Shown one piece after another: positions 1 to 9,402 of a stretch of DNA of 64,000 nucleotides. Origin of the DNA: Escherichia phage RB43; sequence record NC_007023.1, one strand, 5' to 3'. Every line of letters begins with the position of its first letter. The first letter of the stretch is position 1. The translations under genes and the position numbers were made by a program. Below the pieces are notes generated by a model, which saw nothing but the letters and a program-made list of their open reading frames with translations, was not told the origin of the DNA and did not search any database.

Positions 1-17
1 TTTCGTATCTTCTAATT

Positions 18-422
18 TCATTTCATATCCCATAATTCATATTGTGCGCGAAGGATAGCGTACAGGCTACCTATGTGGATCGTGTCTACCGGACACTGGA
101 ACATATCACTACGCATCATGTTAAACTCAATATCGTTCTGTTCAACGAAGTTGCCGATCATTGATGTCCAGCCCATCACCAGGTTATAGCCGTCCTCCGA
201 TAACCCGTAAGCCAGCTTAACCATGATACAGCGTTTATCAGCCAGTTCTACGCGCATATGGGTACTGCTATGCGTGACCTTGCTGGGGAATCTGCGGAAC
301 ATCTTGGTAAGGAGTTTAGCCGTTTCAATATTGAACGCCAGTTCTTGATCCTTACTAACCTGATTATCATGACGACGATCCAGGTATTTTTTCATCTTAG
401 GGTTAGTGTTCACATGTTGCAT
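18..422 (-). CDS. hypothetical protein (134 aa)
   Basis: ORF in co-oriented minus-strand early-gene block; no recognisable motif. Confidence 0.45.
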   Translation of the reverse strand: MQHVNTNPKMKKYLDRRHDNQVSKDQELAFNIETAKLLTKMFRRFPSKVTHSSTHMRVELADKRCIMVKLAYGLSEDGYNLVMGWTSMIGNFVEQNDIEFNMMRSDMFQCPVDTIHIGSLYAILRAQYELWDMK

Positions 423-595
423 AATGTATCCTTAAAACGTTCTTTTCCAGTGCCATTGCATGAACTGCATTTTGGCGATCCGTGGTTATCATACCGACCC
501 GAACCGTTACATGCAAGACATTTCCGTAATTTCCAACCATACACGAACCGCATATAGTAATCGGTTCGTGCGGCTTTGCGTTCGTGGAAGTTCAT
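410..595 (-). CDS. small Cys-rich zinc-ribbon-like protein (about 61 aa)
   Basis: Two CxxC pairs (CLACNGSG...CSSCNG); ATG at 595 overlaps upstream stop (ATGA); ORF-track N-extension trimmed. Confidence 0.4.
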   Translation of the reverse strand: MNFHERKAARTDYYMRFVYGWKLRKCLACNGSGRYDNHGSPKCSSCNGTGKERFKDTLCNM

Positions 596-798
596 ACTTT
601 GCTGTAAACCTGAACCAACCACATTTCGATGTTCGGCGCGTAAGTAACGTTTACCATCGGCATAGTGCGGTATTTGTAAGCGGCTTTGTATGCTTCCAGT
701 TCGGTCGCAACACAGAAAGAGAAACCGTTGTCATAACGTTCTGCGTTAGCAACTTCACAACCAACAACAGCAGCAATGTTTTTGTTCATGTTCATGAT
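592..798 (-). CDS. hypothetical small protein (about 68 aa)
   Basis: ATG at 798 preceded by AAGGAAAA; translation MNMNKNIAAVVG... Confidence 0.4.
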   Translation of the reverse strand: MMNMNKNIAAVVGCEVANAERYDNGFSFCVATELEAYKAAYKYRTMPMVNVTYAPNIEMWLVQVYSKV

Positions 799-842
799 GA
801 TTTTCCTTTCTCTGTTTCGTTTCGATGTGTGTAATATAACAA

Positions 843-868
843 AGACCCTGCACGGATGCAAGGGCTTT
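843..868 (-). terminator. terminator-like hairpin (CCCTGCA-CGGA-TGCAAGGG)
   Basis: GC hairpin just downstream of a minus-strand stop; near-identical hairpin at 4890-4911. Confidence 0.35.
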
Positions 869-875
869 AATGAAA

Positions 876-1176
876 TTATTTCGATTCTTTTGGCAATTGT
901 TCGATAATCGATTGAGTTTGTTTAAGTTCTTCACTCAAATTATTTCGATATGTAGCAAGTTCGCGGATTCTCGCGTTCGCATATGTGATGACCCTTTCCT
1001 CAGTCACCGCATAATGATAACCACCATTAGAAGTAAGTTCCAAACGGTAATTATCCCCCGTTAGGTACTTTGATATGCTGGTACTGTAAAAATACCTTTA
1101 CTGCTTCCAGAAGATTATAGTCTTCTTTACCGATAATAAACTGGTTCGGTTCCATTTCTTCAATATCAGGATTCAT
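876..1176 (-). pseudogene. hypothetical ~100-aa protein gene needing a 1-nt frame change at a C5/G5 run (1055-1059)
   Basis: ATG at 1176 (ATGA overlap with upstream stop) gives 41 codons then TAA; downstream frame stays open to 876 with no ATG; joining restores one ORF. Confidence 0.4.
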
Positions 1177-1709
1177 TTTGTAGCCTTATACATTTCAATT
1201 ACGCGTTTCATGTGCTCTTGTGATTGAGGCACACCAGCGAAGTTCAGTTTAATAAAGAATTCAAGACGATCTTTTTTATTGCATTCATCCAGCCCCAGGG
1301 CAGGTAATGACAGGTTTTCAAAGGCGCGTTGTTCGTGTCGCTGCATATCGTCCCAGAACAGACGGGAACCATCCGGCATAGGAATCCCTATCTCACCTTC
1401 ATAAACCTTGATGATCGTCGTCAATCGTTGTTTGCCGTCGATTACTTCGACCCAGTGAGATTCGTTAAACTCGCTATCAACAGCGATCGCGATAATACCG
1501 CAAGGGAACCCAGTGATCAAAGTTGTCAAGAATTCATCTTGTTCTTTCTGCGTCCACACATAAGGGCGCTGATAGGATGGATTCAGATCCAGATCCTTAT
1601 TTTTCCACCAGTGAATATAACTTCCAACAATGATCGCATGTTCACGGCTTCTGAAAGTTATCTGTTCGCGAATCCGGTTTCTTGCCGGAATATCATCTTT
1701 ATTAGACAT
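1173..1709 (-). CDS. DUF262 / ParB-like NTPase-domain protein (GmrSD N-terminal domain family), standalone
   Basis: Motifs SYQRPYVW...LITGFPCGIIAI...VIDGKQRLTT match the DUF262 signature; no nuclease domain follows. Confidence 0.6.
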   Translation of the reverse strand: MSNKDDIPARNRIREQITFRSREHAIIVGSYIHWWKNKDLDLNPSYQRPYVWTQKEQDEFLTTLITGFPCGIIAIAVDSEFNESHWVEVIDGKQRLTTIIKVYEGEIGIPMPDGSRLFWDDMQRHEQRAFENLSLPALGLDECNKKDRLEFFIKLNFAGVPQSQEHMKRVIEMYKATK

Positions 1710-2040
1710 GTTTGACTACCCACATCAATAAACCAGCATTGATAATAGCAAAAGTAGTACAAATCGCAGCATAAACACGCGCATTATGAACGTAGGTTTT
1801 CAGTTCTGCGATCTCTTGATCCTTTTCACTTTCGAACTCTTCACGGGTTCCGTAGTAACCAGGATCAGCAGGAGTAGCAACGCGCACAGCATCTTTTTCG
1901 AATAATGTCGATTTACCATGATCAGGCCCAACAACACCCAAAATGTCACCACGGTCGGTGTTAACGATTCCGTGTGTTCCGGCTTTGGCAAATTTACAAT
2001 CTTTGATTGTGACTACACGATCGCCAGCTTTGTAATTCAT
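1702..2040 (-). CDS. hypothetical protein with C-terminal hydrophobic helix (112 aa)
   Basis: ORF; C-terminus AAICTTFAIINAGLLMWVV is hydrophobic. Confidence 0.45.
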   Translation of the reverse strand: MNYKAGDRVVTIKDCKFAKAGTHGIVNTDRGDILGVVGPDHGKSTLFEKDAVRVATPADPGYYGTREEFESEKDQEIAELKTYVHNARVYAAICTTFAIINAGLLMWVVKHV

Positions 2041-2054
2041 AATATATCCTCAAA

Positions 2055-2068
2055 GGGGCCGAAGCCCC
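2055..2068 (-). other. intergenic GC hairpin (GGGGC-CGAA-GCCCC)
   Basis: Perfect 5-bp stem between two minus-strand ORFs; weak U-tract, so attenuator or processing site rather than strong terminator. Confidence 0.3.
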
Positions 2069-2325
2069 TATTTCGCTTTCTGTTGGAGGTACTCTAACAG
2101 TTTACCTTCTTCCTGCAAAGCAGAAACTTTATTCAGCTTTGCAATGTTCTGGAAATCAGATTGATCGGAATACTCCCAAACACCATCATCAGCAATAATT
2201 GCACCTGCTGATTCTCCGGTATGTGGATTGCGAGTCAATGCCAGCCCCAGGGGATGCAGGATCTCTTTATTGATTTTCCAGAGCAACCCCATTTCAGACA
2301 GAGTATTGAAATCGACGGTTTTCAT
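2068..2325 (-). CDS. hypothetical protein (85 aa)
   Basis: ORF in co-oriented block, overlapping stop/start with neighbours. Confidence 0.45.
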   Translation of the reverse strand: MKTVDFNTLSEMGLLWKINKEILHPLGLALTRNPHTGESAGAIIADDGVWEYSDQSDFQNIAKLNKVSALQEEGKLLEYLQQKAK

Positions 2326-2708
2326 TTTGCAATAATGCCGAAAGCAAGCAAACCACCGCGATGATCGTTATCCGCACTCTCCTGGAAGAAAAAGTATTCA
2401 TCACCGGAAATACTGGTAACACGAACACCTTCTTTCAGATACGGTAACAGATACAGAGGGATCAGCATGATTTCTAAATCATCGCTCCATTTACGGAACC
2501 CCAGATTTTTCATTTCTTCCATCGTCAGGTCATTAGGATCGACGGGTTCAAAATCAGGTGATGCCTGGAGTCGTCCAGGAAGTGAACGTATATGGTTGAG
2601 AGCAAATTCTTCTCCCCATGACTGATACGCGATAGGTTCAGCGGCACGGGTTGCAGTAGCCAACAGAATCATTTGGCAGATTTGGAAAGTCGTTGCTTTT
2701 GTTTTCAT
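2322..2708 (-). CDS. hypothetical protein with hydrophobic N-terminus (128 aa)
   Basis: N-terminus MKTKATTFQICQMILLATATRAA resembles a signal peptide. Confidence 0.45.
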   Translation of the reverse strand: MKTKATTFQICQMILLATATRAAEPIAYQSWGEEFALNHIRSLPGRLQASPDFEPVDPNDLTMEEMKNLGFRKWSDDLEIMLIPLYLLPYLKEGVRVTSISGDEYFFFQESADNDHRGGLLAFGIIAK

Positions 2709-3118
2709 GATGTATATCCCACAAGTTTAGTAAGGAGGTGTCCCATAGTCTTACGCGCATGATCGCGGATTTCGCTATAAGGAACATATTTGAAACCGTC
2801 CATTTCTGTAATGGTTCGACCGTTCTTCACGAACGTTGACGCACAGAAACATTTATCGGCTTCGGGGTAATTATCGCCTTTGTAGATGAACAATGCAAGT
2901 TTTTTCTTACTTGTATAATCCAAAACACCCAGGCTGATCAGTTGGTCAGGACGCACTTCGAAACCAGTTTCTTCGAAGCATTCGCGAATAGCAGCATCAT
3001 ATGGGCTTTCACCCTTTTCTACATGCCCCTTTGGAATATCCCAGTGGGGCGTTTCGGTAGCGTGACCCATTAGAATACTGCCGTTATTCAGAAAGAGAAT
3101 ACCAGCAGATAATTCCAT
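2705..3118 (-). CDS. nudE: NUDIX hydrolase
   Basis: Nudix box GHVEKGESPYDAAIRECFEETG (Gx5Ex7REUxEExGU). Confidence 0.8.
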   Translation of the reverse strand: MELSAGILFLNNGSILMGHATETPHWDIPKGHVEKGESPYDAAIRECFEETGFEVRPDQLISLGVLDYTSKKKLALFIYKGDNYPEADKCFCASTFVKNGRTITEMDGFKYVPYSEIRDHARKTMGHLLTKLVGYTS

Positions 3119-3354
3119 TATGCGTTTCCTGAACTAAATTTCTCGTCGTATGCGGAAAGCGCATTATCTGCACGTTTTTTCGCTTCTGTATGTCCACGGC
3201 TATCATTGATACCGCGACGATACATTTCGATCCAGAAAGAACGTCGAGTATCTTCGTTCATTTCGGTCAGTTTAATATCGCGAAATACGTTTTGTTCTTT
3301 GATCAGTCGTGCCAGTTCAGCATCTTGTTCAGTTCTTGATAGTACAGTGTTCAT
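3118..3354 (-). CDS. hypothetical protein (78 aa)
   Basis: ORF in co-oriented block. Confidence 0.4.
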   Translation of the reverse strand: MNTVLSRTEQDAELARLIKEQNVFRDIKLTEMNEDTRRSFWIEMYRRGINDSRGHTEAKKRADNALSAYDEKFSSGNA

Positions 3355-3375
3355 AGTTCACCTATTTCTTTCAGT

Positions 3376-3603
3376 TCAGTTTTCAGTTTTTCGAGGAGTG
3401 GATTGGTATTGGATTTGTGAATCACTCAACCGCGCATAGAACAGAGTACGGGTTTCGTTGATTTCAGACAATACCTCTTGATCGAGTTTTTCGATACCCG
3501 CACCGAATGCCATTTGAAACAGAGTTTCAGCAGTTTGCGCGAATCCGTGTTGAAACATTCGATCGAATTTTGGTTCGTATTGTATTAAACGGACACTAGC
3601 CAT
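3376..3603 (-). CDS. hypothetical protein (about 75 aa)
   Basis: Internal ATG chosen to avoid long overlap with 3596-3889 ORF. Confidence 0.35.
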   Translation of the reverse strand: MASVRLIQYEPKFDRMFQHGFAQTAETLFQMAFGAGIEKLDQEVLSEINETRTLFYARLSDSQIQYQSTPRKTEN

Positions 3604-3889
3604 AATATTCTTCGTAATCCTCACAATCTGGGAGGTATGTTTCGCAGAACATACAGAGTGTGAAAAATGCGGTTTGGCGAATGCCTGGGTTATCCGGTAG
3701 ATACATCCAGAATGTGTTTGCAAACACAATGAACGTTTTCAGATTTTCAACGGTTACTTCGCTGATACCATCATAACCAGATTGCGCGATCGCTCGCTCC
3801 AGAGGAACAGGATATTGCTGGCAGTAGTCAGCGTAATGTTCACTCGTTACAAGGTCATTAGCGACCTTCACTAAATTGGTGATTTTCAT
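3596..3889 (-). CDS. hypothetical protein (97 aa)
   Basis: ORF in co-oriented block. Confidence 0.4.
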   Translation of the reverse strand: MKITNLVKVANDLVTSEHYADYCQQYPVPLERAIAQSGYDGISEVTVENLKTFIVFANTFWMYLPDNPGIRQTAFFTLCMFCETYLPDCEDYEEYYG

Positions 3890-4152
3890 TCAATATACCC
3901 CCAGCGAATCATAATATTATTGTCATCGGCAGGACCGTATACCGAAGGGTACGGATAAACTTCTGCTTTATAAAGATACACGATAGAATGCTTACGCATT
4001 TCATTGATAATATCGCTAAACGTACCTACTGATGTTTTTAGAGGCAGTGCCATTGGATTATCGCTGGTTTCTACTGTTGCTATCGGTCCATCAACCAGGA
4101 TAACACGAACTATCGTATGTTCGGTCAAATAAGCATATATTTTGTTTTTCAT
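3886..4152 (-). CDS. hypothetical protein (88 aa)
   Basis: ORF in co-oriented block. Confidence 0.4.
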   Translation of the reverse strand: MKNKIYAYLTEHTIVRVILVDGPIATVETSDNPMALPLKTSVGTFSDIINEMRKHSIVYLYKAEVYPYPSVYGPADDNNIMIRWGYIE

Positions 4153-4469
4153 GCTTTTACGTATTCCACTTTAACAGGTTTTGCGACAAGGCGGTCTTTG
4201 GTGTAACCTTGCCCGTTACAGATATCACACACGTACTTGATATCTTCCATTTGGTCAACCCATCCAGAATCAGGCAAGCCAGAAGGATATGTGTTAACAC
4301 GGCGCACAACATATCCCTTACTTTCGCATTTCGGGCATTTGTGGGGATATTTTGATTTCAGTTCATTGGAGATCTGACGCAGCGTTTTCTCACCGCCGAG
4401 AACGGCGCACATGTGTTCGAGATCTGGAATTCTTAAATCAGCAGCCGTAACCAGGTTGAACTTTGACAT
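4149..4469 (-). CDS. zinc-ribbon protein (about 106 aa)
   Basis: CPKC...CDIC motifs; internal ATG (MSKFNLV...) preferred over ORF-track start. Confidence 0.4.
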   Translation of the reverse strand: MSKFNLVTAADLRIPDLEHMCAVLGGEKTLRQISNELKSKYPHKCPKCESKGYVVRRVNTYPSGLPDSGWVDQMEDIKYVCDICNGQGYTKDRLVAKPVKVEYVKA

Positions 4470-4479
4470 AATATATTTC

Positions 4480-4620
4480 TCACTTAAAGAATTTTTTGAT
4501 GAAAGATAGGAACAAGCCACCACCGAACATGATCCAGTAACCAGCACCATCGCCATGAAACAAGACATAGACGGCAACACCGTAACAAAATAGTTCTGCA
4601 ATGTTCAGTAAGTTTCTCAT
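4480..4620 (-). CDS. small hydrophobic membrane peptide (46 aa)
   Basis: Strong SD AAGGAGGAAGG before ATG; MRNLLNIAELFCYGVAVYVLFHGDGAGYWIMFGGGLFLSF; below ORF-track size cut-off. Confidence 0.4.
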   Translation of the reverse strand: MRNLLNIAELFCYGVAVYVLFHGDGAGYWIMFGGGLFLSFIKKFFK

Positions 4621-4709
4621 ACCTTCCTCCTTTGTCTACACCAGGTATTTTACCAGAATATAGACCATAGTCAACAACAAAGTTTTATCAACAATACGAT
4701 CGCCTGTCA

Positions 4710-4850
4710 TTAGTAGTCTCCCATAGGTTGAGAAGATGCGACACTCAGAACTTTGAAAGTGCATTTGTTCCACTCACAATAAGTTTTTGCACAGTGAACG
4801 CTACCTTTCATAACAAACCCATTTGAGAAAATAAGCCAGTACAGTTTCAT
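4710..4850 (-). CDS. small protein (about 46 aa)
   Basis: AAAGGAG SD before ATG at 4850. Confidence 0.3.
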   Translation of the reverse strand: MKLYWLIFSNGFVMKGSVHCAKTYCEWNKCTFKVLSVASSQPMGDY

Positions 4851-4885
4851 GATTGTCTCCTTTGTTTCAACACCCCCAATATAGC

Positions 4886-4917
4886 AAAAGCCCCTGCACG
4901 AATGCAAGGGCTTTTTT
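4886..4917. terminator. rho-independent terminator (GCCCCTGCACGAATGCAAGGGGC plus T-run)
   Basis: Hairpin 4890-4911 flanked by A-run and T6; follows stop of minus-strand gene 4917-5453. Confidence 0.45.
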
Positions 4918-5453
4918 CAAATACTTTTCAACATGCGTAGTTGAGGTGGACAATCTGGGGAAGCAATCAGGCGATCCAAGCGCGACATAACGCGACGGTA
5001 GCCGTCATACTCGAACTTGATTTTAGGCGGTACATAGTTAACGTTGATTGCGTTTCTCGCGTTAATGTTCGCCTCATACTCAGGGATCACGGTGCGCAAG
5101 CGTAACGCAATCACTGGCTTTTCTTCTTCGAACAATTGGACAGTACAAACACAGGCAAACACTTTACCGTTAACGCGACGGTATGCGATAAGCTCCCGTG
5201 CTCCACCACCTTTAGTTTGTACTGCGTGATACAGAACGTTACACGAATAATGTTTTGCAAGGCTATGCAAAATGTCACGGTACAACTCAAAATCTTTTTT
5301 GATTGATGCAGAGCGATCGATAAAACGGTCTGCAATATGATCTCGCGTTGCCGATACCTTGACGGTATAGAAATCGCCCAACACCATATTAAACAAGTCG
5401 TTTACTTCTTTGCGTACATCGTTGATACGTGACATTAATCGTGTTCTGTTCAT
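4917..5453 (-). CDS. hypothetical protein (178 aa)
   Basis: ORF immediately downstream of 57B homolog. Confidence 0.5.
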   Translation of the reverse strand: MNRTRLMSRINDVRKEVNDLFNMVLGDFYTVKVSATRDHIADRFIDRSASIKKDFELYRDILHSLAKHYSCNVLYHAVQTKGGGARELIAYRRVNGKVFACVCTVQLFEEEKPVIALRLRTVIPEYEANINARNAINVNYVPPKIKFEYDGYRRVMSRLDRLIASPDCPPQLRMLKSI

Positions 5454-5456
5454 AAA

Positions 5457-6080
5457 TCACCCATTATGTTTAAAGTATTCGATCTGACGCAGACGTTTTT
5501 CTGCTGCATCTTTCGAATCATATTCACCAAGTTCTTTCGTGCGGTCCTGATTGAGTATAACCCATTTATCGCCGCGCTGTTCGATGTGCTCCGTGATATC
5601 TTCAACAGTCTTATCGAGATCCAACGATTCAGCATCTTCCTCGATAATAGTCAAATCAACAGGCAGTGTCAACAGCCTTTTCACTCCGCTGATATCTTCT
5701 ATGCGGGAATCATACGCAAGCGTAACATGCGGTTTGTAATCGTCGAAATCATACGTTGCTCCGGCATCCATCGCATCTTTGAAACGGCTATGCAGATAAT
5801 CAGACTCCAGAACACCAACGATTGTATTACCATATTTCGTGTCCCACTTTTCGACATCAACCAAACGGGCAGGTTCAGAGATACCGGACGCAGGGAACAA
5901 ATCAACCGTTTTGCGGCTATACACAATCGTTGTATGCAGTTTTGCAGCAGAAACAGGATTCTCTACACCCAGAAGTTTTTGCACCTGTGCAAGCGCTTCA
6001 CAGGAAGCCTGATCGAACTTCGCACACATATACACACCTGGATCTTTCACAGGTTTTGCAACTTCAAGAAAACTTTTCAT
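5457..6080 (-). CDS. 57B: 2H phosphoesterase, T4 gene 57B / Acb1-like
   Basis: Two H-x-T/S-x motifs (HTTIVYS, HVTLAYD); position next to 57A and gene 1 as in T4; GGAG SD before ATG. Confidence 0.6.
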   Translation of the reverse strand: MKSFLEVAKPVKDPGVYMCAKFDQASCEALAQVQKLLGVENPVSAAKLHTTIVYSRKTVDLFPASGISEPARLVDVEKWDTKYGNTIVGVLESDYLHSRFKDAMDAGATYDFDDYKPHVTLAYDSRIEDISGVKRLLTLPVDLTIIEEDAESLDLDKTVEDITEHIEQRGDKWVILNQDRTKELGEYDSKDAAEKRLRQIEYFKHNG

Positions 6081-6091
6081 GTGTACTCCAA

Positions 6092-6116
6092 ATAAAAAAG
6101 GGGCTTTCGCCCCTGA
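6092..6116 (-). terminator. rho-independent terminator (GGGGC-TTTC-GCCCC)
   Basis: Hairpin 6100-6114 followed on minus strand by U-run; between 57A and 57B. Confidence 0.5.
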
Positions 6117-6138
6117 TGGTTAAACGCCTAAGCGTTAA

Positions 6139-6420
6139 TTATGCCTTTGAGCGGTCGATCGCTTCGTCGTCTGCTTTCGCTTCATCAGCTTCTGGAAGCA
6201 GTGCTTTGATAGCACCGATCAGAGCATCAGCGGATACGCCCTGGGAACCGTCGATTTCCAACAGTTGACAAATCTGGCCTACCAGTTGGCGATGATTGGT
6301 CAGCTCTTGTTCTTTACCCTGAATGATTTCATTCAGATCGAAAACACGCGCTTTCAGGATCAGTACATCGTTTTGCAGTTGCTGGGTTTGATTTTGGGTT
6401 TGTTCAGTCATTTTATACAC
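6139..6420 (-). CDS. 57A: gp57A-like tail fibre assembly chaperone
   Basis: Small coiled-coil protein (MTEQTQNQTQQLQNDVLILKARVFDL...) beside gene 1 as in T4. Confidence 0.5.
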   Translation of the reverse strand: MYKMTEQTQNQTQQLQNDVLILKARVFDLNEIIQGKEQELTNHRQLVGQICQLLEIDGSQGVSADALIGAIKALLPEADEAKADDEAIDRSKA

Positions 6421-6422
6421 TC

Positions 6423-7085
6423 TTAAAAGTTAATTACACTAAGCACGTTAGCTTTCAATTCACTAAGCGTACCATTATTTAGGATGATAATATCAGTTGG
6501 TTGAGGGTTCAAACCTTTCTCAGTTGAATGGCTGTCATCCTCTCCGGTTTTCTCGTTCGATGAATACGAACTTAGGCCCCGAACTTGCTCAGGTATTTTA
6601 TATTCATGTTTTTGTCGAACATCCGTAATGATAAAGTTATCTTTATCGGAACGCAACATTTTCTTCAATACAATATCGACCCATACAATATCGTTATGAT
6701 TACACACGATATCAGTACCGAAAACCTGCATCAGTCGGCGTATTGTCCAGGGCTGTGTATTGGTTCTACAGATTTCATATACTGCTGTATCAACAGCACC
6801 AAGCCAATAGCCCCGCTTCTCTAACCGCTTAACCCCGAAGTCGAAGACTTTTAGTGCATCTTCGTTAGACATCAACAGGGGCGCTTCTCGATCGCCTGTA
6901 TAGAATGGGTTGGTTTTAGTCAGTTCACGCAAGTAACGGTTTCCCGATTCCTTCATCCCGTCCGACAGAATACTTTTGATCTCGTCAGCGAGCGCGAACG
7001 CTTCGACGTTTTGATAGTCATCTAAAACGAACTGGGTAGCGGTGTCTTTACCCGTTCGTTTTTTACCACAAATGCAATAAATCAT
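6423..7085 (-). CDS. 1: deoxynucleoside monophosphate kinase
   Basis: P-loop GKKRTGKDT; RRLMQVFGTD, ITDVRQKHE, NNGTLSEL match T4 gp1. Confidence 0.85.
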   Translation of the reverse strand: MIYCICGKKRTGKDTATQFVLDDYQNVEAFALADEIKSILSDGMKESGNRYLRELTKTNPFYTGDREAPLLMSNEDALKVFDFGVKRLEKRGYWLGAVDTAVYEICRTNTQPWTIRRLMQVFGTDIVCNHNDIVWVDIVLKKMLRSDKDNFIITDVRQKHEYKIPEQVRGLSSYSSNEKTGEDDSHSTEKGLNPQPTDIIILNNGTLSELKANVLSVINF

Positions 7086-7087
7086 TG

Positions 7088-7621
7088 TTATTTTTTCCGT
7101 GGAGTCGGCACGATTACCTTTCCGTCAATTTCAATCTCCATATATGCGAAGTTGAACATAGCCATACAGGAAACGGCTTCATCCGAATCATTAGTGTACA
7201 TAAGCTCAAGCTCTCCCAGGTTGGAGGGCCAAGCACCATAAAAGCGAAATGTCGCCACAGTTTTTGATTGCGAGTTATCCAGGATATGCAAAGCCATTGC
7301 CTGTTGTGATTCACTCCATCGAATAGATTCGAAGGTGTTAAAATCGACGGTTCCAAGCATCCATAGGTAAACACCAAGATAGGATCGCAATTCTTCATCA
7401 ACAGCAAACCGAATAGTTAACGGATCGAACTCCATTGCTGAACCAGGGATCTTACTACGGATCATTGGGTTCAAGGGTGCATCCGTAATCGGTATTTTGA
7501 TAGATGGTAGTGTAACACCCTGAACCTGTAGTTTCAACCCTTTCATGTAATCATTATCAGGAATGTCTAAAAGAAAGTTGGTTGGTGAAATTTGGTTCAG
7601 GATCATAGCAGTTGTATTCAT
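7088..7621 (-). CDS. 3: tail completion / sheath stabiliser protein gp3
   Basis: 177 aa; tube-like fold pattern paralogous to gp19; T4 synteny (1-3-2-4-53-5). Confidence 0.65.
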   Translation of the reverse strand: MNTTAMILNQISPTNFLLDIPDNDYMKGLKLQVQGVTLPSIKIPITDAPLNPMIRSKIPGSAMEFDPLTIRFAVDEELRSYLGVYLWMLGTVDFNTFESIRWSESQQAMALHILDNSQSKTVATFRFYGAWPSNLGELELMYTNDSDEAVSCMAMFNFAYMEIEIDGKVIVPTPRKK

Positions 7622-7661
7622 AACATGATCTCCGTTTATAGATATTTATAACCAAGACCGT

Positions 7662-7829
7662 GAGCGAAGCGAACACACGAACGAAGTGAGTGTTTGGTAA
7701 CTCAACTACAGAACTACATAATTATATTTTAATATTTTATATATAGAGAAAAATGTAGTTTTTGGTATACTTTTTGTACAGATGTTAACTATCCGTCTTC
7801 GCTTCGCTTGACGGAACTCGCTTCGCTCG
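7662..7829. repeat. dyad-symmetric intergenic element, copy A
   Basis: Arms GAGCGAAGCGAA...CGAACGAAGTGAGTG / CTCGCTTCGCTCG around a 57-bp core (7712-7768) identical to 42423-42479; core is itself palindromic (AACTACAT...ATGTAGTT). Confidence 0.75.
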
Positions 7830-7903
7830 TAACCTTGAAAAAGTTATTGATCAATTCAATAAATAGGTATATCATACCCATACTTTCAAAAGAGATTGAA
7901 AAC

Positions 7904-8512
7904 ATGAAATCATTCAAAGAACTTATTTCTGAATCTGTTCAGAACAAAAAATTTGCAAAGACAGTTGATCTGGTTGACCGTGGTAATGCTTCAAAAGGTC
8001 AGATCGGTTTCTTACACTTCGCACATGGTGCTGACTACGATGTGTATGCTCCTGATTCTCACGATCTGGCTTACTTCGGTAAAGGCGTTGTTCGTTTGAA
8101 AGGTAAAACCACTGGCAAAACTCAGGCTGCTTATGTTGACTGGGCGAAAGGCACGGTTTCATTCTACAGCGGTGATCCTGCTGATGACCTGAAATTTGAC
8201 AAGCCAGCAAAATTCAAAGGTGCTTCCCTGTACAAAGAAGCGGAAGAGAACATTGATCTGTATAACCAGTTAGCGGAAGATTTCGAAATCGATCTTCCTC
8301 TGGATGAAGCGCTGGTGAAAGGCGGGATCTATAAACTGCCGAGTAACGATATGCACTTGCTGTATACCGGACGCACCAAAACCAAACCAACTGGGGAATA
8401 TGCGGTATTCACTGTTGTTGATGCTTCTGGTAAACCTCGTCTGGTATCCGGCGCACGATTCACCCAGGAATACAAAGGCGACGTAGTAGCCAAACTGGAA
8501 AAAGTCAAATAA
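7904..8512 (+). CDS. internal-protein-like protein with capsid targeting sequence (about 203 aa)
   Basis: N-terminus MKSFKELISE matches T4 CTS consensus MKTYQEFIAE; + gene inside minus-strand block; ATG at 7904 preferred over ORF-track start 7808. Confidence 0.6.
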   Translation: MKSFKELISESVQNKKFAKTVDLVDRGNASKGQIGFLHFAHGADYDVYAPDSHDLAYFGKGVVRLKGKTTGKTQAAYVDWAKGTVSFYSGDPADDLKFDKPAKFKGASLYKEAEENIDLYNQLAEDFEIDLPLDEALVKGGIYKLPSNDMHLLYTGRTKTKPTGEYAVFTVVDASGKPRLVSGARFTQEYKGDVVAKLEKVK

Positions 8513-8516
8513 AAAT

Positions 8517-8547
8517 AAAGCCCCTTCCTTTCGGTTGGGGCTTTTTG
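8517..8547. terminator. bidirectional rho-independent terminator
   Basis: AAAGCCCCTTCCTTTCGGTTGGGGCTTTTT; identical hairpin at 43536-43557. Confidence 0.6.
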
Positions 8548-9402
8548 TTAATATCTGTTCCAGACTTTTTTTGCCGAGAACGGTTTTCCTTTCGACACAA
8601 ACGCCTGTGTAGGCAACCAGACAGCTTTAGCCCAATCTTTCGGGGCTATTTCTGCAAGTGGTGAACGCAAATGGGCTGGTAGGTAGACTTTGATCATTTG
8701 ATCAGCCCCGCGCATTCCTTTTACGTTGTTCCAGTTGATTTTCAATCTGGTTTTGTTTGAAAGGCGATCCGTAGATCCGTAACCGCGTTTCAAGAGTTCT
8801 TCTAAGAATTCCTGTCGTGCTTTCGGTGGCGCATAGTGCAAGTTCAATCCATATAGAACCACGTTACCCGCTTTAGAACGTCCTGAACCCAGGAAGATGA
8901 TTAGCGGGAACCGATCCCAGTACGGTAGGGTGTCTTTATACTTCGCGTCATACACGAACGTATACAGGCGACCTGTTGCTGGTTTCGCTACCCTGTGCGT
9001 CTTGATACTGGTTTTGATGAAGTCACCAAACCATTCAGTCGATTCTTTCTGACGTTTCGCAGCGGGAACACCAACTGTAATTTTCCTTAAACTGTTTCGG
9101 AAATCGTTGATGATGTCAACCGTATGTTTTTTGCGATAGTCGTTACGTTTTCGTCGGGCTTCGGTTTCTGCCGTGCGTCGTGCGATTTCGTCATCAATTT
9201 GCTGTTTGTAACGGTGCATCGACTTCGTGAACGTCGCATATGCAATTCCGTTATCGTCTGCGAATTTTTTGGCTGTCATGCCTTTTAATTTTGCGCGTCG
9301 GAATTTAATACCAATCTCAACCCATTCCCCCAGCTTTCGCTTCGGTGGCGGTTTTGGCTTATCTTCTTCTGCGATGATCTCGAATTCAAATATAAAGCTC
9401 AT
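8548..9402 (-). CDS. 2: DNA end protector protein gp2
   Basis: 284 aa, basic; position between gp3 and gp4 as in T4. Confidence 0.6.
   Translation of the reverse strand: MSFIFEFEIIAEEDKPKPPPKRKLGEWVEIGIKFRRAKLKGMTAKKFADDNGIAYATFTKSMHRYKQQIDDEIARRTAETEARRKRNDYRKKHTVDIINDFRNSLRKITVGVPAAKRQKESTEWFGDFIKTSIKTHRVAKPATGRLYTFVYDAKYKDTLPYWDRFPLIIFLGSGRSKAGNVVLYGLNLHYAPPKARQEFLEELLKRGYGSTDRLSNKTRLKINWNNVKGMRGADQMIKVYLPAHLRSPLAEIAPKDWAKAVWLPTQAFVSKGKPFSAKKVWNRY

Follow-up and report, generated by a model that had tools for sequence, protein, structure and literature searches.

A single-domain DUF262 protein of Escherichia phage RB43 and the short, phage-dominated clade to which it belongs

To our knowledge, the DUF262 domain serves as the sensing head of some larger assembly in every system in which it has been studied, namely GmrSD/BrxU, SspE, DndI and the as yet uncharacterised Menshen, PD-T4-2 and Dazbog. 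GmrSD, BrxU and SspE are proteins of 560-800 amino acids, in which DUF262 is joined to an M domain and a DUF1524 HNH nuclease. All characterised DUF262 defence proteins couple the domain to a helical DNA-binding part termed ParBDB, and in SspE this M/ParBDB domain is reported to be indispensable for the binding of DNA (PMC12065111). Menshen requires, in addition to its DUF262 protein NsnA, the adjacent NsnB (ABC ATPase) and NsnC (RNase effector) (PMC12065111). Here we describe a gene of Escherichia phage RB43 (NC_007023.1), located near the start of a 64,000-nucleotide stretch of its genome (hereafter the window), which encodes a DUF262 head and nothing else. A first-pass annotation made from the letters of the window had described the product as a standalone protein resembling the N-terminal domain of GmrSD, and had suggested that it could act as a decoy against host defence or in the exclusion of competing modified phages.

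The wider ParB/Srx fold offers further points of comparison. Canonical ParB proteins comprise a PF02195 N-domain, a helix-turn-helix (HTH) and a C-terminal dimerisation domain, and have a ParA/parS partner. Sulfiredoxin and serine-kinase (SerK)-type enzymes are precedents of the fold without a DNA-binding module. ToxB, a toxin domain of CdiA, is likewise a ParB fold without DNA binding; it hydrolyses ATP and causes nucleoid collapse (bioRxiv 10.64898/2026.05.05.722872). In phages, ParB homologues associated with 5mYOX can activate a neighbouring enzyme (PMC13229309), and a 2025 survey of the fold, based on TIGR00180/PF02195-type models, found short single-domain ParB-fold proteins in phages while never mentioning DUF262 (PMC12704722).

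The RB43 protein retains the pocket motifs of DUF262 and a new, clade-specific histidine, and it lacks the parts that couple the domain to DNA or to an effector. For this reason we favour, with middling confidence, the reading that it is an autonomous single-domain module that would bind and hydrolyse a nucleoside triphosphate (NTP) and act early in infection. It would cut no DNA, and it is not a restriction enzyme.

Domain, motifs and fold of the RB43 protein

The sole Pfam match of the RB43 protein is GmrSD_N (PF03235), with 73.5 bits (cut-off 33.2; E 3.2e-20). A profile of the family found the BrxU, DndI-type and SspE chains in the PDB; this profile was needed, as a single-sequence phmmer search against the PDB gave nothing meaningful. 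The AlphaFold2 model obtained from 34 homologues is compact and confident, with a predicted local distance difference test score (pLDDT) of 88.5 and a predicted template modelling score (pTM) of 0.82. The product is thus, by its family and by its fold, a single-domain ParB/Srx protein. The profile search and structure prediction recommended in the first-pass annotation therefore bear out its DUF262 call, and the strings that it quoted are present in the 178-amino-acid open reading frame (ORF).

The three motifs of the domain, QRxxxW, DGxQR and FxxxN, whose definition and the role of DGxQR have been described (PMC12065111), are all present. Invariance was judged on an alignment of 34 diverse homologues. 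In motif I, Q47 and R48 are invariant, and conservation reaches 90% or more at Y46, V51 and W52; the motif aligns with 'QREFVW' of BrxU. Motif II (D91-G-K-Q-R95), the predicted phosphate-binding centre of DUF262, is invariant throughout; its counterpart in BrxU and related chains of the PDB is DGQQR. In motif III and the clade-specific extension that follows it, no variation occurs at F152, N156, G159 or H166, with at least 90% conservation at S163; 'FIRMNSGG' of BrxU lines up with the FxxxN-G stretch. The protein ends 12 residues after His166. At 178 amino acids it leaves no room for a ParBDB domain; neither M/ParBDB nor DUF1524 is present, in contrast to GmrSD, BrxU and SspE.

The affinity to GmrSD proposed in the first-pass annotation holds at the level of the Pfam family and no closer. 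The best PADLOC match is NsnA of Menshen for all 34 members (best E 6e-22; RB43 E 5e-16), followed by PD-T4-2_A, which 22 of them also match, and motif II reads DGKQR instead of the DGQQR of the aligned BrxU and SspE-type chains. The NsnA match of the RB43 protein spans profile positions 45-205 of 385, where the protein ends.

The RB43 protein is not a canonical ParB, because it is too small for the HTH and C-terminal domains and PF03235 is its only match. No HTH or other DNA-binding domain was found in it, its isoelectric point (pI) is about 6 (mostly 5-6.3 across the family), and the Pfam scan of ten ORFs neighbouring the gene in the window detected no ParA-like protein. Orthologues are labelled 'DUF262 domain-containing protein' in several GenBank records, and 'chromosome partitioning protein' and 'DefenseFinder protein' in one record each; the last two labels, assigned by automated pipelines, are unjustified. 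Sulfiredoxin, the SerK/SbnI kinases, PadC, the short phage proteins of the ParB-CTPase fold and ToxB share with the RB43 protein a ParB/Srx fold without a DNA-binding module. They differ from it in carrying PF02195 or Srx and other motifs, whereas the RB43 protein has PF03235 and DUF262-type motifs; sulfiredoxin has its own catalytic Cys motif, and ToxB belongs to a polymorphic toxin, CdiA, that comes with a gene for immunity. Neither Pfam nor phmmer against the PDB gave a sequence-level match between the RB43 protein and the sulfiredoxin and SerK-type families.

A short, mostly phage-borne DUF262 clade

We searched 1.84 billion representatives exhaustively with HMMER and obtained 26,848 matches, with 427 clusters reaching E<=1e-30. 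All of the best 150 representatives terminate at the same place, about 11 residues after motif III, and none of them has an M/ParBDB DNA-binding or nuclease domain. The clade comes in two size classes, one of about 165-185 amino acids that is the domain only and one of about 270-300 with an N-terminal Tudor/KOW-like barrel. Among 179 clade proteins, these 150 included, QRxxxW is found in 176 and DGKQR in 172, with DGRQR in four others. The histidine of the signature N-x-x-G-x6-H, ten residues past the Asn of motif III, occurs in all the printed clade proteins but one truncated sequence, and the median tail beyond it is 11 residues.

When species-representative bacterial genomes were scanned for DGKQR proteins, two classes emerged. 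In the short class the His motif is present, no tail exceeds 10 amino acids and scores are mostly above 100 bits, whereas the long class (345-834 amino acids, 60-90 bits) lacks the His motif and has tails of 180-400 residues. The long proteins that were tested match NsnA and PD-T4-2_A over DUF262 and farther. DGKQR, QRxxxW and FxxxN are common to the RB43 clade and to Menshen NsnA and PD-T4-2_A; the NsnA-like proteins (345-450 or more amino acids) continue into a C-terminal tail of 180-400 residues (ParBDB) that the clade lacks, and they do not have its histidine. The RB43 protein is thus a separate, shortened derivative of the NsnA/PD-T4-2_A-like branch and no fragment of GmrSD. NCBIfam holds no model for the clade.

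No NsnB-like gene was found 3' of any long DGKQR protein tested. In Endozoicomonas sp. (locus L177), an NsnA/PD-T4-2_A-like gene for DUF262 plus ParBDB (5995-7035) lies directly upstream of a C5-cytosine DNA methyltransferase gene (7093-8187), a pair that looks like a restriction-modification system rather than Menshen.

By tblastn, the gene is present in 299 phage records. Copies with 76-100% identity occur in RB43/RB16-type phages, Slopekvirus and related phages of E. coli, Klebsiella, Enterobacter, Cronobacter, Citrobacter and Yersinia. More distant copies are found in Vequintavirinae-type phages of about 145 kb (42-46% identity to RB43), in P22-like Salmonella phages (45%), with an Ead/Ea22-like gene next to it in the early-left ea region, and in Krischvirus (about 38%), where it adjoins the gene for the Alt ADP-ribosyltransferase. 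Further lineages were seen on viral metagenome contigs of up to 597 kb, and jumbo and marine phages also carry the gene. An 88%-identical copy lies on the 178,077-bp contig NZ_JBHSCL010000010.1 of a 'Flagellimonas marina' assembly (locus L099); from its size and similarity this contig is evidently the genome of a pseudo-T-even enterobacterial phage and probably a contaminant of this species-representative assembly. Solo chromosomal copies, of the long form of the clade, occur in Kineothrix alysoides (L115, 5638-6456) and Paenibacillus terrigena (L121, 5641-6423). Their neighbours are amtB/P-II, MarR, hydrolase, nitroreductase and sigma factor genes, with no prophage or defence island.

The 6-kb region is common to roughly 177 phage records, and about 171 of them retain the gene in synteny (at least 60% identity for the gene), which makes it more core-like than a typical moron. 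The first-pass annotation had foreseen that a conserved housekeeping role in related phages would speak against its proposal; the conservation is there, but a housekeeping role is not known. Pairwise ratios of nonsynonymous to synonymous substitution rates (dN/dS) among six phages of E. coli, Cronobacter, Klebsiella, Enterobacter and Yersinia are 0.06-0.13, a sign of strong purifying selection. The small size of the protein next to GmrSD, BrxU and SspE might suggest the decaying remnant of a full-length GmrSD-type gene, that is, a truncated pseudogene. This explanation is effectively refuted by these dN/dS values, by the common end point of the best 150 representatives, by the hundreds of diverged clusters and by the confident structural model, and we give it next to no credence.

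Neighbouring genes and the search for a partner

The first-pass annotation had advised looking in the neighbouring ORFs for a split nuclease partner. In the window, Pfam scans of the ten neighbouring ORFs gave NUDIX, DUF7415 and sub-threshold matches only, and no nuclease; ten immediate neighbours in other lineages contained no nuclease domain either. Next, 96 loci were grouped at 60% identity, which gave 29 lineages. Clustering by BLAST of the 3,192 ORFs within 3 kb gave no neighbour family present in more than three of these lineages. A batch scan that took in, to either side of the gene, the two closest ORFs on its strand gave no Pfam family in more than two of 116 flanking ORFs. No flanking protein is common to Krischvirus, a P22-like Salmonella phage, Vequintavirinae and the metagenomic phages. 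A DUF1524/HNH nuclease is neither fused to the protein, nor encoded in the individually scanned flanking ORFs, nor recurrent, the RB43 genome outside the window lying beyond this search. The nuclease-free, standalone architecture was thus correctly recognised at the outset, and a split partner was not found. Likewise, in contrast to Menshen, in which NsnB and NsnC adjoin, no ATPase or effector flanks the RB43 gene in the window and none recurs elsewhere.

These results bear on two explanations that need a partner. In the first, the protein would be half of a phage-encoded restriction or exclusion system, sensing modified T-even-type DNA and relying on an effector elsewhere in the phage or in the host. 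DUF262 domains do sense modified DNA in known systems, and in ECOR17 a GmrS-only protein, GmrS1, is required alongside GmrSD2 (PMC12373910). RB43/RB16- and RB49-type phages are not among the carriers of dCMP hydroxymethylase, and phages without this gene network probably contain unmodified deoxycytidine (PMC2993671), so that carriers without genes for hydroxymethylcytosine (hmC) could in principle discriminate against hmC phages. Such exclusion of modified phages, as put forward in the first-pass annotation, would however need an effector, and none was found fused, adjacent or recurrent over the 29 lineages. In addition, the ParBDB of all characterised sensors is absent, and marine and jumbo phages as well as Bacillota chromosomes carry the gene without the context of a system. 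The P22-like copy also lies in the ea region, which is expressed with early-left timing and is not a typical slot for defence genes expressed in lysogens. We therefore regard a split system as improbable.

In the second, the protein would be an accessory activator or regulator, like DpdB or the 5mYOX-associated ParB, both of which activate a DNA-modifying enzyme, or like the NTP-dependent regulators of the DndB/KorB type. Known activators adjoin their cognate enzyme, and both DpdB and the 5mYOX-associated ParB keep a C-terminal dimerisation domain; the RB43 protein lacks this domain, and its gene has no recurrent partner and, in the window, no adjacent DNA-modification genes. The absence of a DNA-binding domain and the pI speak in the same direction, and we rate this possibility about as low as a split system.

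The features of the locus are listed in Table 1. The first 6 kb of the window are 99.9% identical to two RB43-GVA records. An apparent 664-bp insertion relative to RB43-GVA proved to be an artefact of joining BLAST pieces; the alignment is colinear over window positions 1-6000. From about 1 to 9400 the window consists of leftward, tightly packed small ORFs, among them the DUF262 gene, adjoined by a rightward block of large ORFs that is presumably the late structural module, from its position in a T4-like genome. The order nudE, one to three small ORFs, DUF262 is kept across the pseudo-T-even relatives.

Table 1. Coordinates of the DUF262 gene, its motifs and surrounding features in the RB43 window
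Feature	Position	Strand	Remarks
DUF262 (ParB/Srx-fold) single-domain protein gene	1173..1709	-	ATG start, 178 aa
Motif I, YQRPYVW (QRxxxW)	1554..1574	-	Residues 46-52
Motif II, DGKQR	1425..1439	-	GACGGCAAACAACGA; residues 91-95; Lys variant of DGQQR
Motif III, FxxxN (FFIKLN), with clade-specific extension to His166	1212..1256	-	FFIKLNFAGVPQSQEH; residues 152-166
ORF downstream of DUF262 gene	877..1176	-	Start overlaps DUF262 stop by 4 nt
Terminator-like hairpin with T-rich tail	846..863	-	Directly 3' of downstream ORF
112-aa ORF upstream of DUF262 gene	1702..2040	-	8-nt overlap with DUF262 start
GC-rich perfect tetraloop (UUCG) hairpin	2054..2069	-	GGGGCTTCGGCCCC; in 27-nt gap 5' of 112-aa ORF
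DUF7415 protein	2068-2325	-	Just upstream of DUF262 gene
NudE-type Nudix hydrolase	2705-3118	-	Just upstream of DUF262 gene
ORF matching gene annotated as putative RNA ligase in several relatives	5457-6080	-	
Second perfect GC-rich tetraloop hairpin	6099-6114		AGGGGCGAAAGCCCCT; GAAA loop, then T-run; between leftward ORFs
70-aa ORF, CxxCxGxG-type zinc-finger repeat	410-622	-	DnaJ central domain-like

The 112-amino-acid ORF upstream of the DUF262 gene, with which it is probably co-transcribed, has homologues at the same place in RB16 and KP27 (59-64% identity) and none upstream of the gene in JC221 or other lineages. It has no Pfam match and, from its hydrophobic C-terminal stretch (AAICTTFAIINAGLLMWVV), may encode a membrane protein of the tail-anchored kind. 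The ORF does not qualify as a conserved partner of the DUF262 gene. The hairpin 5' of this ORF leaves no space for a promoter, so that the block would be transcribed through from farther upstream; this hairpin and the second one of its kind are probably intercistronic terminators or RNA-stability elements. The hairpin beyond the downstream ORF is the likely 3' end of the three-gene block, and KP27 has an annotated terminator at the equivalent place. A promoter scan showed no enrichment of sigma-70-like sites over shuffled sequences, which gives no firm evidence on timing.

The downstream ORF encodes 99 amino acids in RB43-GVA. In the window it is split into ORFs of 41 (1051-1176) and 55 amino acids (876-1043) by one additional C at position 1055, in a C-run (1055-1059); one of the records may have been misread at this homopolymer, or else the isolate has a true frameshift. 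The RB43/RB16 protein (99-102 amino acids) corresponds to the C-terminal 90 or so amino acids of proteins of 266-319 amino acids in JC221, KP27 and another RB43-like phage (locus L019). Longer homologues are seen at L013 (2010-2924), L019 (5522-6481) and L014 (2468-3268), from Slopekvirus, JC221 and another RB43-like phage; the module is helical, and the N-terminal part of about 200 amino acids has been lost or gained among near relatives. It belongs to no Pfam family, with sub-threshold coiled-coil matches only, and an iterative profile search found it in two of the 29 lineages. As a universal partner this translationally coupled ORF was rejected, the module being confined to pseudo-T-even relatives; lineage-restricted and devoid of a nuclease, it reflects local synteny and not a system. 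In Klebsiella phage phi1_146015 (L097, 1395-1922) a 175-amino-acid ORF on the opposite strand replaces the downstream gene of about 100 amino acids, which shows that genes come and go in this slot.

Of all neighbours, the 70-amino-acid DnaJ-like ORF is the one shared most widely; it occurs in three of the 29 lineages (14 loci) and whose Pfam match (E 8e-4) lies under the cut-off. Genes of tRNA- or RNA-repair type, for a CCA-adding enzyme, RlaP, an aminoacyl-tRNA synthetase and Thg1, lie within a few kb in unrelated phages (L002/L003, 7121-8401 and 10274-11347; L007, 3823-5088; L008, 8655-10094; L016, 9539-10384). An association with RNA repair or tRNA was not supported, as these families are not recurrent and neither the window nor nine loci contain tRNA genes, and these neighbours may represent mere clustering in accessory regions. 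ARAGORN found no tRNA or tmRNA gene and Rfam no family at its gathering threshold in the 64-kb window. The scan of 116 flanking ORFs also revealed conflict-type neighbours at some loci, namely NADAR, ADP-ribosyltransferase and antirepressor genes.

A proposed autonomous module and a possible sensor decoy

If the protein is an autonomous NTP module, it would be produced from leftward, probably early, transcripts, bind and probably hydrolyse an NTP, perhaps associate with itself in an NTP-dependent way like other proteins of the ParB fold, and work alone on a host-conserved target, such as a nucleotide or small molecule, a host protein or the nucleoid. Its role would be in host takeover or immune evasion. 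The dN/dS values and the syntenic retention fit a conserved target or an intrinsic activity, and the solo copies in Kineothrix and Paenibacillus argue for a self-sufficient activity.

Several points weigh against this reading. NTP binding and hydrolysis are predicted solely from the conservation of the motifs, and in the 5mYOX-associated ParB the function survives mutation of the equivalent residues (PMC13229309). PHROG 1583 lists the family as 'unknown function', and host takeover or immune evasion names a broad class more than an established function. The nearest multidomain relatives are sensors of defence systems, and the gene lies in accessory, conflict-type neighbourhoods, both of which fit a decoy equally well.

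As such a decoy, the bare DUF262 head would block host sensors (Menshen NsnA, PD-T4-2_A, Dazbog, SspE or BrxU), either by co-assembly through the NTP-dependent ParB-type dimer interface or by competition for the ligand, so that the effector stays untriggered. The uniform affinity to NsnA, and to PD-T4-2_A for most members, is in line with this, as is the resemblance of the phage clade to the head domain alone of the long bacterial DGKQR proteins. The gene is moreover mostly phage-borne, solo and mobile across unrelated phages, in accessory regions, with NADAR, ADP-ribosyltransferase and antirepressor genes as neighbours, and in one public record an orthologue is marked as a DefenseFinder hit. 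Strong purifying selection, together with 76-97% identity over five host genera, is, however, ill-suited to tracking diversifying sensors, and the invariant His together with intact motifs suggests an activity, not an inert mimic. The clade is old, large and self-contained, with no sign of recent capture of a host sensor, and Bacillota chromosomes hold solo copies amid housekeeping genes. Competition for DNA is doubtful, because the M/ParBDB domain is missing. A decoy against type IV restriction, including GmrSD/BrxU, is unlikely, because these enzymes target modified DNA while RB43-type phages, whose cytosine is probably unmodified, lack hydroxymethylcytosine and hence are no GmrSD substrates. 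On balance we regard a decoy of other DUF262 sensors (Menshen, PD-T4-2, Dazbog or SspE) as the main rival, though a less likely one than the autonomous module.

Our literature search found no paper on the short clade, none linking RB43 or RB16 to DUF262 and, among the matches listed, no phage-encoded inhibitor of Menshen; the branch is also unmentioned in the fold-wide survey of 2025 (PMC12704722). New in this work are a delineation of the clade by its signature, the finding that it is closer to NsnA than to GmrSD, the systematic exclusion of partners and the data on selection. Extending the autonomous reading to the whole clade, we tentatively suggest that it may be a family of autonomous enzymes of the ParB fold, not described before and spread mainly by phages, in which the histidine could give the NTP pocket a new chemistry, used early on host nucleotide pools, on immune signalling or for nucleoid collapse. 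Candidate reactions would be the hydrolysis or modification of nucleotides, or phosphotransfer to a small molecule or a protein. If the protein instead mimics a sensor, it would provide Menshen and PD-T4-2, both uncharacterised, with a first candidate inhibitor, and could help to explain the working of their sensors. A large, phage-dominated clade that keeps the DUF262 head alone, with an intact pocket and the additional histidine, implies that the head is selectable on its own.

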